This document shows, piece by piece, positions 3,001-9,000 of a stretch of 64,000 bases of DNA (its first letter is position 1; each line of letters opens with the position of its first letter). The position numbers are program-made. The stretch comes from an uncultured Planctomycetota bacterium (GTDB lineage: Bacteria; Planctomycetota; Planctomycetia; Isosphaerales; Isosphaeraceae), in contig CAWJTV010000041.1 of assembly GCA_963845755.1 (NCBI GenBank), positions 1 to 64,000 on the forward strand. Reading direction: 5' to 3'.

Positions 3001-6000
3001 GGTTCGGTCGTGCCTTTTGAAGTTCTCGTAGTGCGGTGTCGGTGACTCGGGTATTGCCGACTTCCAGAGATTGGAGGCGTTTGAGTCCTCTCAGGTGGAT
3101 CAAACCTGCATCGGTGATCTGTGTGCAGCCGAGGGAGAGACTCTTGAGATTAATCAACCCTCTTAGGTGGACCAACCCGGCATCAGTGACGGCAGTCTCC
3201 CTTAATGCCAGGACCTCCAGACCGGTCCGGTGCTCCAGGTGTGCCAACCCAGCGTCAGTCACCGCGCTACGGTTGAGCCACAGCGATCGAAGGGCCGGCA
3301 AACCTTTGAGGTTCGCCAACCCCTTGTCGCCGACTCGAGTCTTATGGAGGCCCAGAGTCCGGAGTCGAGACAGTCCTTCAAGGTCGGCCAATCGGCTGTC
3401 GTTGACGGACGATTCCCAGAGTCCCAGTTGCTCAATTCGAGTGAGACGGACGACATGGTCCAATTCCGTACCGGTGGACGGCCCATCGGGACCGACTCCG
3501 ACGAGGTCCACTCTGACGACATGGCCGACGTAATCGAGGCCGATACGATCCGCGAGCCATCTCACCCACCAGGGACTTCGTCTCGGATCGAGGTTGTATT
3601 CGACGTTTCCGTTTGCCCGACGGATGGCCGCCACGGCCTCGCGCTGGACTTGAGCCTGGTGGACCACCCATCCCAGCCAACAGCCGATGAGGAGCACGAG
3701 GATGACCAGTCCCCGAACTCTGAGCCGGAGCCAGCGTCGTCGAGATTTCGGTGTCACGTTCCTGGATCACCTATTCCATGCCCCGCCGTCGTGCCTCGCC
3801 CGCGTATCCGCGCCAACTATGGATCAGGCTTGTCATTGCGCGGCGCGGGGGAACTCTGCGGCGGCGCGGATCGTTGGTCAGCGGCGAAAGCCTGCGTCGA
3901 GCTGGTAATAGAGCGCGTCCAGCCGACCGCGACCAGCGCCGCGTACCGGAAACCGCCGCAGCATCTCGCGAACTGCCGCCGAGGCGTGTTCGATCGCCCA
4001 CCGGATTTCCTCGTCACTGACGTTGGGATCGCCGCCCGCTGCGAGTTCGCGGGCCCGCGCCCCATACACCGCGGGACCAAGGACGTGTTTCGCCTGGTCA
4101 GGTGTTATCAGTGCGTGGACGTAAGGGGTTGCCGCTGCGAGGCCCGCGGCGCGAGCGGCGGCTGCGGCAACCGGATCGCCGACCTCGCGTGCCGCTGCGT
4201 AAGCCGCCCAGACGAGGGAGCGCAGTTGCCCTTTCCGCTTCTCCCCGCGCGCGAAGGCCCGGATGCCCTCGATTGCCGTGCGCGGACGGGTGTCAGAGAG
4301 AGCCTTCGCCTCGAACAGCGGCAGCACCCGCTCGGCGCAATCGGCGGCCCAGAGCCCGACAAGGCGGCGGTCTTCTTCGCTCAGCGTCATCCCGCCGGGT
4401 TCGTGATCCATCCGTCGCCTCCCTCACGCGCTGGGCAGCACTCGGAAGTCTGTCTGCGCAGATCTTTGGCAGGTGTTTGCTGTTCTTTTAGGGCCGAGCC
4501 TCTGGTCTCAATTAGGGTTCAGGCGTGACGGCTTCCTCTGGCCCGGCGGCTCGATGACGCCTGATGGCATGGGAGTATCCCAGGATGGCCCCCATCGCGG
4601 CGAAGCCCAGAGTCAGCACCGAATGGCTCGACTGGCGGTATCGCTGCAACCCGGCCACATACCTGGCCACATTTCCGGGCGGTTCCGAATACCCTGAGAC
4701 TTCAAGACTGCCTGGAGGCGAGTATTTTTTCATCTCTGAAGCCAACTCCGGGCTGAAGTAAGGGATCGCCTCCTCGAACATGGCCGTCGTACGCGGCGGG
4801 CCGAGACGCTCATTCGCTACAGGTCCAAATCCCAGGATGAAGCACGGCCACCCGAATACGGCGCAACCGATCCAAGCCAGACGGCTTGGTCCGCTCTCGG
4901 CGAGGGACATGAAGATCGCGCCGACACAGCAGGGCTAGTGTCGTGAGCAGGATGATTCCGCCGCAGAAGGCCGAGTTGATTCGGAGCGCGGCGAAGCTCA
5001 AGGCGATGATGACGATGGCCGCCATCATCGACGCGATGCTGAATCGGAAGCGCATCACAAGACCCTCCGTCGGTTCGCTCGCCGTTAGGATGTAAAGGGT
5101 GGATTCTGGATCACCCGTTACAGATCCCGTCATCGTCCCGCGCCCGCCTGTCCGGCTCAACTATGGTCCACCACTAAATGAATCCTCGTAATAGAGAAAG
5201 CGAACGTGTGATGTCGCCGCGGTTGCGGTGAATCCTTGCCCCGAAGGGGGGAAAGGAAACGGGCCGCTCCGTCTCAATCCTCCCCCCTTACCGAGGGGGG
5301 ATGCCAGGGGGGTGAATTCGCATCGACCCTGGGGTGTGCGCCACGCAAGTGTTACGCGCTCTAGAACCAGATCTCGAAGCGGGTCATGAACAGGTCGCTG
5401 GTCCGCGCGAAGCCGCCGGGAGCGTAGACCACGGGGCTGCCGAACCCGGCGTGCTGCCAGTCGAACAGGACGTGGATGTACGGATTCCAGTACCAGTTGA
5501 TTCCGAGGTCGGTGACGAAGAGGCGGTCGGTCCAGAGGTTGGGATCGGCCAGCCCGGCGGTGAAGACCTGCTGGCCGAGATCCAGATAGCTGTACCGGGC
5601 GAAGACTTCCCACGCGCCCAGTCCGAATCGCCCCGGGCGGAGGTCGAACGACCGGAGTGGCGTGACCCGTCCTCGGCTGGCCAGCCGCTCGCCGGTCAGG
5701 AAGTACGACGCCTGCACGTAGAAGCTCTCGATCGGCAGGTGCACCCGGCTGCTCGTGTGGTTCGCCAGGGCATAATCCTGGAAGCCGCTCTGCCACTCGG
5801 CCAGGACCATCAGGCTCCGGTAGAAATAGGCCGCATGCAGCGACCAGAGATTGCGCGGGCCGGAGACCACAACGTTGTTGTTGAACGTCAGGAACGGGAC
5901 CCCGAGGACGTTGCTGCCGGCCGTGGGCACGATCGTCCGCAGCTCCTGGGGCACCGGCGCGTGGTTCTGATCGCCCGCGACCAGAGAGCCGCCCACGTTG

Positions 6001-9000
6001 AAGTTCTCCAGCGGCGAATCCTTCACCGGCCGGAACGGGGCGAAGTTGAGAAATGAGATCACGCTCTTGGGATTGCTCAGGTCGAACTGGCCGTTCGGCG
6101 TACTGTTGAAGATCCCCGCGGCGTAGTCGATCCGCCCGGCCACCGACTCGCCCCAGAACATCGCGCCCAGGTCGCGGTTCATGCCGAAGTTGTTGAAGAA
6201 CACCGACCACTCGCCGCTGGCCAGAGCCTCGGTCGGCTGGGCGTAGAACTCATAACAAAACGGCGACTTGAACCGGCCGAAGCGGAACTGGATCCGCTTG
6301 TCGTAGTTCACGTTCAAGAAGACATCCAGGGCGGCGAATGTGTCGAAGGAATCATTAAAGGAGACATAGTATTCATAAGGCCGACTCAGGTGGCCGTTGA
6401 AGACGAACCACTGGCGGGCGATGCCGAAGGTATCGGAGACGGGCGTCTGGTTGGGGATGCCGTAGAATCGCCCATCGAGCTCGGTCAGGTTGTGGAACTG
6501 GATGTCGAACTCGTCGTCGGTCGTCCGGAGCTGGAACCCGGGGCCCCACCGCGTCTGCGCCGGGACGTTGGGCAGCACCGCGGGCATGTCGAAGCGTGGC
6601 GACGGCAGCTCGGCCGCCGGCCCGAAGCCCGCCGCCGTGCCGCCGAAGCCCACCTCTTCGGAGACGGTCCCGCCCGGACCACCGGCGTCGGACAGATCCG
6701 ACACCCCGCCGCCGGCCGAGGTCCCTGACGTCCCGGGTCCGGTCCGGGTAGCGTTCAGGTTCGTGGCCTGGCGCGGCCGCCTTCGCCTGTCGCAGCTCCG
6801 TCGAGAGCTGATCGACTTGCGTCGAGAGTTTCTGGACCGTCGACTCCAACTGCCGGACATGCTCCGGGTCGGGCATCCGTTTGAGCAGGTCCTCCATCTG
6901 GCGAAGCCGTTCCTCCAGCGCGTCCCCATGCGTCGTAGTCGTGCCGCCCATCGCAGGCAGCGCCGGTACCGCGGGCACCGGCGGCGGAGGAGCTGCGGAC
7001 GACTGCGCCGGCGCGGCGGGGAACGCCGAGGCCGAGTGCCAGCGAGATGAGCACCGTCGGCAACCATCGGATCATCCGTTCGCGATCGACGTACAACCTC
7101 ATGCAATTGCCCTTCGGCCGAAGACGCACCCTCGGCCCATGGCTTCACTCGGCGCAAGAAAAAACTCCTACCGAAGGGACATCGGTCCCTCAAGGTAGGA
7201 GTTATTAACCCCGCGAAGGGTGGTTCAACGTTGGGGCGAACTCCATCACCCCCGGCGCGATCTCGCCGCAGACTATAGGTATTATCTATCATCGGCTGAC
7301 CTGCGAGCCGACTTTACCGATTTTGCGGTCGGGATTCCTGGGTCATGGCGCCCGAGATCATCCCCATCCTGATCCGGCCGAGGCGAAACGCGAAGCCCGC
7401 GATCTTGGCTCGGTCAACTGTGACCAATTTTGCCCTTACGCTTTGCTCCCGCGACAAGGGCGGTGCGTCAAGTGTCAACTATGGCGCGCCAACGATGGAT
7501 CACCCTTGGCACTCTGCCGACCAGGAATAGGTCGTCAAGACTCGCGGATTCTACCACCGCGGGACAAACCACCCGCCCTGCTCATCGACGGTCCATGATA
7601 AGTCATTTTGCCCTTGCCATGCTCACTAGGAAAACTGACGGCAAGTATCCCGCCGGCTCGGTCCATTCCAGGTGATATCGTTCTCTCCGACCTGCACGAC
7701 CCCCGTCCCGTGGACGAGGACGCCGAGTCCGTGCTCGTTATCCCAACAGCAATGGAAAGTAAACCCAATCAACGAACAGCCATCTTTAGATAGGTCGAGT
7801 ACGCGGAGCGTGTGCAACCGGATCAGCCTCTTAAGATCATCCGGGGACTGCACCTCCGGGACCAGGGTCTCGTCCGAGGCCGCGTGTCCGGTGCACCACA
7901 TCTCGCGCTCGCGACGATAGTAGTCAAAGATGGCCTTGACGACCGTTGTGCAGACCAACTCCTGGTTCTCCAGGAATTGGACGAAGGCCCGCTCCTGTGC
8001 GGACGACGGCGGATTTCCTTCAGGACGGTGCACAATCAACTCGAAGCGCCCCTGTTTGTAGCCTTGGTCTGCCGTTTTGCGATAATCGCGCCCTCCGAAC
8101 TTCTCCGCCAGGAGAGCGGACGCAACATCATCAAACCCCGAGAAGAAACCGATCTGAACGGCCCCACTCCACCCTCTGGGAGCCTCGGAGATTGCGCCGA
8201 ATCGGAGATGATCCATGGGGTTCACCTTGGGGATTGTCCGCAGGTCGAAGGCATCCGTCAGTTCGCAAGCGATCCAGCCGGCCTGGGAGTCGTCCACGAA
8301 CCTCACGATGCGGACCGCCACGGCTTACACGACGGATGCTCCCGAACGGCTGGAAGTGGAAAGGGTCGATACTGGAATCACCCTTTTCGCTTTCATGCCG
8401 CGCAGAGGGCCGAGCGTCAAGTCTCAACTAGAGTCCAGGCGTCACACACGGACGGAGCGGCGTGAGACCATCAACCGGAATGGCTCGCTTCTTGGAAGAC
8501 CAGCCACTCCCCCGCCGTCTCCTCCAACCGTTGCTTGCCCCCTTCCGTCGCCATGAAATGCCGCTTGCCTGTGGGCCGAAACAGGGGCGCCCCGCACCAC
8601 GTCGCTGGATCGATCCGGTATTCGTAGACTCCTCGACCGACCCGGACCGCATCCACTTGGGCGCCCTCGGGAAGAATCAACTCCCACAACAGGCCGAGCC
8701 GTTCCGCGACAGCCGGGGAGTGCGGGCGTGCCAGGATGTAGTCCTCCGGTTCCCCGCTTTCTGGGAGTTCGAGCGGTGACGGCGCGCTTGGGTCCCACAG
8801 CTCCCAGCGGAATTCAACGATCCGGGTCTTGATGACCGGGGCGAATGAGAGCCCGGCGAGCCCGGTTCGCTCAATTGCGGCCCGGAATTTGTGAGTGACG
8901 ACGACATCGCCGATGCCGGGCAGTGTGATCGGGGGGATGAATGGTCCGGTCCGTTCGAGCCGGATCAGCCCGTCGAGTCGGGGGAGGTGGCGTGACATGC

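Follow-up and report, generated by a model that had tools for sequence, protein, structure and literature searches.

A fluoride riboswitch paired with a clade of OprP-type outer-membrane porins in the Isosphaeraceae

The riboswitch and the gene behind it

The window analysed here is a stretch of 64,000 nt of contig CAWJTV010000041.1, from a genome of the Isosphaeraceae (Planctomycetota; assembly GCA_963845755.1, coded G000). It carries on its minus strand a fluoride riboswitch followed by an intrinsic terminator and a porin gene (Table 1). The aptamer was recovered where the initial annotation had placed it and is, as stated there, the sole copy above the cut-off in G000. A second true switch on another contig (C11:~755,990-756,025) was ruled out: this site, orthologous to the cassette of genome G046, holds a decayed half of an aptamer that lacks the 3' pseudoknot strand, a terminator and an Rfam match.

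Table 1. Features of the riboswitch-porin locus (window positions).
Feature	Position	Strand	Basis or remark
Bipartite promoter-like motif, T[AC]AAGT-N15-[CT]CGA[TA]	7291..7316	-	37 nt upstream of aptamer
Fluoride riboswitch aptamer (crcB motif, RF01734)	7189..7259	-	39.5 bits (gathering cut-off 34)
Intrinsic terminator, 5' arm = aptamer pseudoknot strand	7159..7202	-	Hairpin -21.7 kcal/mol
Likely start ATG 7102, preceded by a purine-rich ribosome-binding-like site (7115-7110)	7100..7115	-	Sequence
Signal peptide; frameshift 1 (~7010)	7000..7102	-	Three-frame translation, by eye
Coiled coil in the periplasm, probably a trimer, with frameshift 2 (~6772)	6772..6951	-	Weak LPP/tropomyosin matches
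Gly/Pro/Ala-rich linker, variable in length	6590..6772	-	Translation, relatives
OprP-fold beta-barrel, 409 aa, C-terminal Phe	5361..6590	-	AlphaFold2, fold comparison

In 11/11 orthologous leaders pairing is complete (100%) in P1 and the pseudoknot, and P1 and P2 show compensatory changes among the leaders of the porin cassette. Over P1, P2 and the pseudoknot 99.5% of cells are paired and three pairs are altered on both sides, a level matched by 0-1 of 500 shuffles (a test inflated by kin) and by none of the slid controls. Because its 3' core also precedes crcB in G026 and G025, the window aptamer is predicted not to be a ligand-altered variant. The reported terminator exists, but its arms are revised to ACTCCTACC (7202-7194) and GGTAGGAGT (7172-7164) plus a U-tract. 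Its 9-bp stem is 99% paired across the 11 leaders, all of which share the pseudoknot strand between aptamer and terminator, and the folding energy of the leader is -50.9 in the terminator form vs -40.0 when that strand is kept open. This overlap predicts a transcriptional ON switch, with the aptamer, overlapping terminator and logic described for fluoride riboswitches (PMC2864571).

The promoter-like motif upstream is found at 11/11 OprP-type cassettes, at 11/15 cassettes of a second barrel type (COG4313, below) and at 0/52 remaining riboswitch copies; among paralogues lacking a switch it precedes 4/71 OprP-type and 0/15 COG4313 genes. It resembles the sigma-28/FliA consensus, with a spacer one base longer. 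A FliA/WhiG sigma factor is encoded in 112/121 genomes, and no flagellin was found in G000. Over 2132 upstream regions the motif showed no enrichment tied to its spacer length (9 instances with spacer 15 and 12 with spacer 17), and a sigma-70 promoter scan found none.

The porin gene, initially taken to encode ~560 aa, most likely starts at ATG 7102, giving ~580 aa like the intact relatives P0241 and P0003, which begin at the equivalent Met. Judged by eye, the signal peptide has a basic start, a hydrophobic stretch and Ala-x-Ala. The claim of a single frameshift did not hold, the gene having two. Frameshift 1 is a 2-nt deletion within a GC dinucleotide run, seen as an identical 2-nt gap in comparisons with G046, G034 and G062; at the site of frameshift 2, P0002, from a different assembly, reads through in frame. 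Both are probably assembly errors, and no assembled contig spanning either with a near-identical piece was found. It is quite unlikely that the copy is instead a true pseudogene in a lineage losing its fluoride regulon, although two breaks in 1.7 kb exceed the ~0.5 expected (P about 0.10), G000 has the decayed C11 switch and yielded no crcB, and frameshift 1 may recur in the assembly behind P0002, whose call begins past ~7010. Such breaks are common in this assembly, with 14/50 conserved genes frameshifted (0.30 per kb), including gyrase and clamp (named from sequence); at both sites the indel states differ among near-identical proteins of other assemblies, small indels near 7150 distinguish short-read contigs, and the barrel, switch and promoter-like motif are all intact.

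Three copies of the coiled-coil segment of the relative P0005, folded together, scored 0.70 vs 0.00 for the best control, with runs sharing at least 71% of contacts at a pLDDT of at least 73. The score mark is attained by 21/30 solved pairs and 0/23 single chains, a calibration that differs from three-copy folding, which may pass through resemblance to known coiled coils. The protein may be a trimeric pore bearing a periplasmic coiled coil.

Barrel fold and pore residues

The Porin_O_P match is partial, as had been noted, covering only residues 307-434 of a 469-aa frame (E 1.1e-12). The PF07396 profile scores 48.4 bits vs a cut-off of 20.9, and HH-align to canonical planctomycete Porin_O_P members gives 99.9% over 370 columns. 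The AlphaFold2 model of the barrel (pLDDT 93.5, pTM 0.89) matches OprP (2o4v) with Z 36.0 and rmsd 2.8 over 368 aligned residues, the next best match having Z 24.9. The predicted structure is thus a 16-stranded barrel of OprP fold.

The earlier placement in the phosphate-porin family stands as regards the fold alone. The basic residues of the OprP site, R34, K121, K126 and R133 (PMC5877670, section 3.1), correspond to L35, F115, about T120 and W128 in the window porin, as mapped through sequence bridges without side-chain superposition. W128 is fixed in 32/32 members of the switch-linked clade, whereas Arg is retained in 79/85 paralogues. The D94 equivalent is kept as D89 and that of R60 is also kept, but the S124-K126 stretch is not conserved, and the full OprP phosphate site (D94, Y62, S124, S125, K121, K126, R34, R133) is absent. 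Since its basic residues are lost in the clade, 'phosphate porin' describes the fold and not the function. Clade barrels are also more acidic than paralogues (net charge of strands -5.7 vs -1.6, of loop L3 -2.9 vs -1.7), and five pore positions separate switched porins from unswitched paralogues.

With the Pseudomonas aeruginosa porins OprP and OprO (PF07396; 2o4v, 4rjw) the window porin shares the fold and the D94 and R60 equivalents, and it may be a trimer as well; it is only about 17-20% identical, has the R34, R59, K121 and R133 equivalents replaced, and carries a Lys at the Y114 position, an N-terminal coiled coil and a linker. OprP is controlled by the Pho regulon, the window porin by a fluoride switch. 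Comparable is ExtI of Geobacter sulfurreducens, likewise annotated as a phosphate porin, retaining few site residues and having a role other than phosphate, as it is implicated in selenite/tellurite handling (PMC5877670). The window porin matches its NCBIfam model weakly (22 bits vs a cut-off of 150) and differs from ExtI in clade, context and regulation.

Switch-linked barrels across the family

Our survey comprised 78 RF01734 copies above the cut-off in 44 family genomes, four sub-cut-off Rfam matches being excluded. The first gene is an OprP-type porin at 11 copies, mostly alone in its cassette. The orthologues first reported behind a switch in G046, G048, G062 and G066 were all confirmed, as were the back-to-back switches of G062, about 200 bp apart, and further ones were found in G034, G042, G065, G067, G068 and G094. 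A quick tree places all 11 in a single clade (SH-aLRT 99; 39 rows). Among metagenome loci with at least 700 nt upstream, a switch was present at 8/9 of clade type vs 0/48 others, the positives representing one new lineage and near-copies of G062 and G094. No switch preceded a non-clade porin among 73 sources. The 712 nt upstream of the clade-type locus L210 contain no switch, and none lies ahead of a second G062 copy or a partial G024 copy. Outside the family, the first genes at 22 riboswitch loci of a 150-genome phylum sample and at 17 loci of 14 non-family genomes in a 150-genome class sample included no porin, and viral contigs did not contain the leader pattern. The porin is very probably under fluoride-riboswitch control, and its proposed membership of the fluoride regulon gains more support than was originally claimed, from a clade-wide pairing with controls and from a second, unrelated barrel family that occupies the same slot in other genomes.

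This second family, a 12-stranded barrel of COG4313/FapF type, is the first gene at 14 of the 78 copies and stands behind an insertion sequence at one more. Outer-membrane barrels are thus the commonest first gene after the switch (26/78 copies, 26/44 genomes) and often its sole detected target; these counts omit a G070 COG4313 cassette, which has a degenerate aptamer and was found by a custom model only, and EmrA-like matches in G043, G032, G007, G013 and G010. No genome has both barrel cassettes (3.75 expected, hypergeometric P 0.0045, kin not being independent), and the two types alternate within genera g12 and g37. The switch-linked COG4313 barrels split into at least two separate groups, implying recurrent recruitment. 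Their models resemble Pput2725 (4rl8) and FapF (5o65; Z 20.9 and 21.8, rmsd 2.7 and 2.8) at about 11-13% identity, the COG4313 profile detecting no solved relative by sequence, and compare with 2o4v at Z 8.7; they are unrelated to the window porin. For COG4313/PF13557 barrels we found no fluoride link in print. A nitrilase-family gene follows the barrel of G064. AlgE-family genes (20 loci in 15/121 family genomes) have no switch.

Other copies precede crcB, enolase, Na+/H+ exchangers, USP and parts of trans-envelope efflux systems (TolC-family, RND or EmrA-like), the efflux parts favouring the fluoride-exit reading given below. The initial statement that the window switch serves the porin and not CrcB needs dividing: CRCB is indeed unseen in G000, but its absence is probably an assembly gap and weak evidence, because crcB is present in 99/120 relatives (including all ten other porin-cassette carriers) and the assembly is 87.9% complete. 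In another sense the statement holds, since in 7/7 carriers tested with a distant crcB no switch lies within 1.4-2.6 kb upstream of it. The reported lack of a fluoride-type ClC agrees with the motifs: the complete ClC of G000 has GGVFGP and the riboswitch-controlled ClC of G022 has GEVTP.

The known RF01734 regulon includes crcB/Fluc, CLC-F/eriC, enolase, pyrophosphatase, Na+/H+ antiporters, HAD phosphatases and formate hydrogen lyase. The window has the same canonical aptamer, overlapping terminator and ON logic; it differs in that the controlled gene encodes an outer-membrane barrel, and barrel cassettes have their own promoter-like motif. The terms 'porin' and 'outer membrane' appear 0 times in the body text of PMC11139923, PMC2864571, PMC7266159 and PMC9495176, and we found no link between fluoride switches and porins in the literature, though the gene tables of PMC2864571 and Baker et al. 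2012 could list such genes.

Possible roles of the switched barrels

Accounts of fluoride defence place it at the inner membrane and in the cytoplasm. Two unrelated switch-controlled outer-membrane barrels point to an outer-membrane step, which we did not find described. The switch, its ON logic, the OprP fold and a constant association with a single porin clade can be read from the sequence. Beyond that, the best mechanism, judging from regulation, is in our tentative view that the porin lets fluoride leave the periplasm. A portable cassette of promoter-like motif, aptamer and terminator would switch on an outer-membrane channel as cytoplasmic fluoride rises and, with crcB mostly unswitched, would fire only once inner-membrane export fails to hold fluoride low. 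If the periplasm, enclosed by a tight outer membrane, stayed at a higher pH than the surroundings, HF would be trapped there as F-, abolishing the driving force of Fluc; the channel would then pass out of the cell the F- that Fluc/CrcB had moved into the periplasm, the least sure step. Without its multi-arginine phosphate site, a channel that bound oxyanions tightly would become a path of low affinity for a small monovalent anion, and other relatives would meet the same problem using the COG4313-type barrel. Likeness to Fluc or CLC-F would be one of role, suggested by regulation, and we claim no homology.

In a toy model with arbitrary parameters and the periplasm set 1 pH unit higher than the medium, the pore cuts cytoplasmic fluoride ~9-fold; with the two at equal pH and fluoride external it gives no benefit, and with an internal fluoride source it is useful at any pH. 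A passive pore would thus need fluoride trapping in the periplasm to bring any steady-state gain. This condition and the loss of basic residues weigh against the simple form of outer-membrane fluoride export, and the acidic shift of the clade barrel is awkward for an anion channel. We regard as doubtful the wider proposal of dedicated fluoride-induced outer-membrane channels in the Isosphaeraceae, a third kind of bacterial fluoride transporter besides Fluc and CLC-F, which would have arisen when two unrelated barrel families acquired a single promoter-riboswitch-terminator cassette on three or more occasions and would be needed since the periplasm is a second weak-acid trap.

The acidic shift would suit a pore that imports a substance counteracting fluoride, most likely the divalent cations that it chelates (Mg2+, Ca2+, Mn2+, Zn2+). 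In the clade four or five basic residues are gone and E148 is new. ZIP transporters precede sister paralogues in G078, G115, G021, G120 and G090, a P-type ATPase carrying a heavy-metal-associated domain stands ahead of the G068 porin, and divalent cation transporters are over-represented in fluoride-exporter operons (PMC11139923). We still consider cation import unlikely: R41, R59, R103, R106, K108, R139, K175, R218, R332 and R404 remain basic in the clade, basicity is higher in the paralogues linked to ZIP, and in the 11 cassettes no cation importer follows the porin. Alternatively, fluoride might be read as a surrogate for acid stress, since weak-acid accumulation, which is established (PMC11139923), raises cytoplasmic F- with the pH gradient; the barrel would then remodel outer-membrane permeability or pass organic acids or buffers, not F-. 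A slot open to two unrelated barrels fits so loose a function, and the promoter motif they share, separate from the switch, is suggestive of a further input. Yet in G036 and G040 crcB genes lie downstream of the COG4313 barrel and share its strand, the G062 and G034 porins lie within fluoride islands, and pore substitutions that are specific to the clade and fixed there imply a defined substrate, which makes this alternative rather improbable.

Phosphate or pyrophosphate uptake, as annotated, induced since phosphate protects against fluoride, would agree with the fold, the database names, the retained D94 and R60 equivalents and the ties of phosphate importers to fluoride resistance (PMC11139923). 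With 0/4 basic site residues retained and Trp in place of the paralogues' Arg, we find it very unlikely; moreover, the annotated flanks contain no phosphate transporter, the alternative COG4313 barrel is not a phosphate-channel family, and no Pho-box-like repeat was seen upstream (best 8-10 of 14 against the E. coli consensus, a weak test). Less probable still is that the barrels take up organofluorines or other small organics, the switch reporting fluoride freed by their breakdown. PF13557 is named after a phenol-degradation pathway, the nitrilase-family gene in G064 would fit, and so would the model's internal fluoride source, but no dehalogenase recurs in the first genes downstream of either barrel and the OprP-type gene is mostly solitary.

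The prominence of outer-membrane barrels behind the switch makes testable a neglected question, namely the route by which exported fluoride leaves the periplasm. It offers two candidate channels of unrelated families and, in the five pore positions, a contrast provided by natural sequences. Such a channel, if real, would be relevant to engineering bacteria that defluorinate organofluorines. Porin paralogues adjoin ZIP transporters, RND pumps, carbonic anhydrase or a bicupin gene; substrates in the porin family therefore appear varied, a further point against the fluoride-exit reading. The finding is also a warning that 'phosphate-selective porin' annotations in planctomycetes include paralogues with other jobs.

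A probably fluoride-responsive leader ahead of the porin gene

The initial annotation had described a single fluoride riboswitch (hereafter, the switch) followed by an intrinsic terminator, and both were recovered here: the aptamer is the only copy above cut-off in the window's genome (G000; assembly 87.9% complete), and the terminator hairpin has a folding energy of -21.7 kcal/mol. For the leader as a whole the folding energy is -50.9 when the terminator forms, versus -40.0 with the pseudoknot strand held open. Because the aptamer's pseudoknot strand also forms the 5' arm of the terminator, fluoride binding should permit transcriptional read-through into the porin gene, the logic given for this motif in the consulted part of PMC2864571. 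In an alignment of 11 orthologous leaders, pairing is complete (100%) in P1 and the pseudoknot; taken over P1, P2 and the terminator it amounts to 99.5%, and three pairs have changed on both sides. The window porin gene is very probably under fluoride control. To judge from its sequence, the cassette (promoter-like motif, aptamer, terminator and barrel gene) is real and represents a new class of member in a known fluoride regulon, its role in transport being only proposed. Full-text literature searches returned no link between a fluoride switch and a porin, a listing in a gene table being possible; the words 'porin' and 'outer membrane' are absent from the main texts of PMC11139923, PMC2864571, PMC7266159 and PMC9495176, and PMC13104614 mentions porin only in connection with benzoate.

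Features of the porin cassette and its surroundings in the window
Feature	Position	Strand	Remarks
Promoter-like motif, T[AC]AAGT-N15-[CT]CGA[TA]	7316-7291	minus	ahead of aptamer
Fluoride riboswitch aptamer, RF01734	7189-7259	minus	Rfam, 39.5 bits, cut-off 34
Intrinsic terminator	7202-7194 paired with 7172-7164, then U-tract	minus	5' arm is the aptamer's 3' pseudoknot strand
Porin gene	ATG 7102 (likely start) to 5361	minus	~580 codons over three frames
Palindromic repeat	5225-5360		immediately after porin stop; 50 blastn matches in genome
Two leucine-rich-repeat proteins, Imm5-like protein, DUF6985, MazEF pair, ISAzo13 transposase	1619-3757, 3878-4411, 7626-8321, 12369-12961, 13561-14757		accessory neighbourhood
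Three group II introns	16110-16910, 22422-24778, 27937-30293	minus	RF02012 and RF00029 matches

Three of the neighbouring genes have a GC3 of 0.73-0.74, compared with 0.90 for the porin. The promoter-like motif lies 31-46 nt before the aptamer in barrel cassettes and is found in all 11 that carry an OprP-type porin and in 11 of the 15 that carry a second, unrelated outer-membrane barrel (COG4313-type), the other four having near variants. It occurs at none of the 52 other switch copies, and before only 4 of 71 unswitched OprP-type and 0 of 15 unswitched COG4313-type paralogues; no genome-wide enrichment was seen. Promoter, switch and terminator appear to form the mobile unit. The motif resembles the sigma-28 consensus. 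A single-copy gene for a FliA/WhiG sigma factor is present in all 47 high-quality genomes of the family and in 112 of the full 121; in G000 (contig C5, G000:C5:140634-141299) it sits inside an export-apparatus gene cluster. However, no flagellin was found in G000, and given this and the missing enrichment we assign the motif to no particular sigma factor. In one relative, G048, the FliA/WhiG gene is immediately followed by the switch-porin cassette.

Distribution of the switch-porin pairing

The pairing of switch and porin is clade-wide and specific. Among the 121 family genomes compared (the named homologues belong to Isosphaeraceae), porin paralogues are present in 117 and switches above cut-off in 44 (78 copies). 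Eleven copies, in 11 genomes of seven genera including the window's, stand directly ahead of a porin, as the initial annotation had claimed for orthologues in four other genomes of the family. All 11 porins belong to a single clade (39 rows; SH-aLRT 99 in a quick tree), whose two other located members, a partial gene in G024 and a second G062 gene downstream of an RND pump in a fluoride island, lack a switch. A search model built from the 11 leaders detected no switch ahead of non-clade porins in 73 sources. Applied to 78 metagenome loci, the same model placed a switch at eight of the nine clade-type loci having at least 700 nt upstream, versus 0 of 48 others; three of these eight are nearly identical to the G062 and G094 loci, and the other five represent one new lineage whose Rfam score (31.4 bits) is below cut-off. 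One clade-type locus without a switch, L210, is a real exception.

The claim that crcB is missing stands in so far as none was found in the 87.9% of G000 that is assembled, but probably does not reflect a true absence: since crcB is present in 99 of 120 relatives, including all ten other carriers of the OprP-type cassette, an assembly gap is the likeliest reading. In seven of seven genomes (G042, G048, G065-G068 and G094) crcB lies elsewhere without a switch within 1.4-2.6 kb upstream, and in several of them the barrel is the only Rfam-detected switch target. A decayed 5' half-switch with no porin after it remains in G000 at C11:~755,930-756,030 (L344:5970-6089), divergent from an ECF sigma gene; it is colinear over 323 nt with the orthologous cassette site of G046, and the second element of its promoter-like motif is mutated. 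Because the window leader can be aligned over a longer stretch with those of G034 and G062, the working copy in G000 has probably moved or been acquired.

The barrel and its possible substrates

The encoded protein comprises a signal peptide (judged by eye), a coiled coil, a Gly/Pro linker and a 409-aa barrel. Its reading frame breaks twice, at ~7010 and ~6772, rather than once as first annotated. Both breaks are probably assembly errors: frameshifts affect 14 of the 50 conserved genes examined in G000 (0.30 per kb), the indel state at these two sites varies among near-identical proteins of other assemblies, and an 89% identical relative has an unbroken frame of 584 aa. Modelled as three copies, the orthologous coiled-coil segment scored 0.70 (best control 0.00). 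In the calibration the mark was attained by 21 of 30 solved pairs but by none of the 23 single chains; the three-copy job differs from that calibration, and its score may reflect likeness to known coiled coils.

The label 'phosphate-porin family' holds for the fold, not for the phosphate site. The barrel model (pLDDT 93.5) resembles OprP most closely (Z 36.0 with 368 aligned residues and rmsd 2.8; the runner-up reaches Z 24.9; Foldseek E 7.5e-19), whose fold is described in PMC4849052. The OprP site consists of D94, Y62, S124, S125, K121, K126, R34 and R133 (PMC5877670, from its section 3.1), and R133 is termed vital in the portion consulted of PMC12653301. Mapped through canonical planctomycete members, the equivalents of D94 and R60 are kept, whereas R34 is replaced by Leu, K121 by Phe, R59 by Ala or Pro and R133 by Trp128. 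Trp128 is found in 32 of 32 clade sequences, compared with Arg in 79 of 85 paralogues; likewise Ala184 is invariant in the clade (32/32) where all 85 paralogues have Arg or Lys, and His67 (29/32) stands where all 85 have Arg, with Pro165 and Glu148 following the same trend. A few non-clade paralogues without a switch (L030, L229, L239) also have Trp128. Other unswitched paralogues (L093, L095, L096, L101, L105; L107; L109, L361; L110) follow ZIP transporters, precede a carbonic anhydrase or a bicupin, or stand opposite a kdp operon, and these neighbours suggest that they are substrate-specialised.

Our preferred reading, put forward tentatively, is that the porin lets fluoride leave the periplasm, a fluoride-switched outer-membrane barrel providing an exit route. 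This is quite possible, short of probable, because the ligand is fluoride, pores have been recruited repeatedly, crcB lacks a switch where the barrel has one, and other switch copies precede TolC-family, RND and EmrA-like parts. In a toy model of two membranes, whose parameters are arbitrary, a passive pore has no effect against outside fluoride when the periplasm has the pH of the medium, and cuts cytoplasmic fluoride ~9-fold when it is 1 pH unit above; with an internal source the cut is ~2-fold and the periplasm is cleared. By this model, any benefit against outside fluoride would hinge on a periplasm more alkaline than the medium.

Phosphate uptake is quite improbable, as the loss of the phosphate site and the more acidic strands (net charge -5.7 in the clade versus -1.6 in paralogues) argue against it. 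The same lowered basicity is an uneasy fit for an anion channel and may leave room for a cation role, yet ten basic positions persist in or near the clade strands, and we consider import of cations or protectants by the barrel rather unlikely. That fluoride serves as a proxy for acid stress seems unlikely to us, and uptake of organofluorine compounds very improbable.

A second barrel family and other switch targets

Fourteen further switch copies head the unrelated barrel, which has weak PF13557 matches, with one more behind an insertion sequence. Its model has 12 strands (pLDDT 79.4), and this predicted structure resembles FapF (Z 21.8) and a COG4313 channel (Z 20.9). The 15 carriers, from 10 genera, share no genome with the 11 OprP-type carriers (expected overlap 3.75, P 0.0045, kin not being independent), and in genera g12 and g37 both kinds occur, in alternation. 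The COG4313 barrels linked to a switch form at least two separate groups. With 11 porins and 15 COG4313-type genes, barrels are therefore the first gene at 26 of the 78 switch copies; the remainder precede dynamin-like GTPases (14), Cytidylate_kin2 (13, mostly opening crcB operons), crcB (5), enolase (5), metallophosphoesterase (4), SulP, PtsI and EmrA-like genes (2 each), ClC (1) and others (4). No first-gene porin was found outside the family among 22 phylum-sample and 17 class-sample loci, and dynamin-like GTPases follow switch copies elsewhere in the phylum too. Within the family, 20 loci with AlgE-type barrel genes were checked, and none has a switch ahead of it.

Second COG4313 copies lie immediately upstream of the switch in G075, G076 and G064, and OprP-type and COG4313-type genes occur in tandem without a switch at L360, L361 and L081 (G107, G071, G024). 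Fluoride islands with three to four switches each (L082, L085, L086, L083/L084 and L076, in G046, G005, G006, G061 and G034) target dynamin-like GTPases, tandem Cytidylate_kin2, a Na+/H+ exchanger, USP, crcB-DUF190, enolase, metallophosphoesterase, PtsI, SulP, NUDIX and HIT genes. Switches ahead of TolC-family, RND or EmrA-like parts, some of them degenerate or below cut-off, were seen at L383 and L366 (G286), L345 (G065), L349 (G039), and L176, L173 and L348 (G043, G032, G071). At L154 (G062:C20) and L153 (G048:C44) a switch precedes a hydrogenase-4/formate-hydrogen-lyase-like membrane operon, and DUF211 plus enolase.
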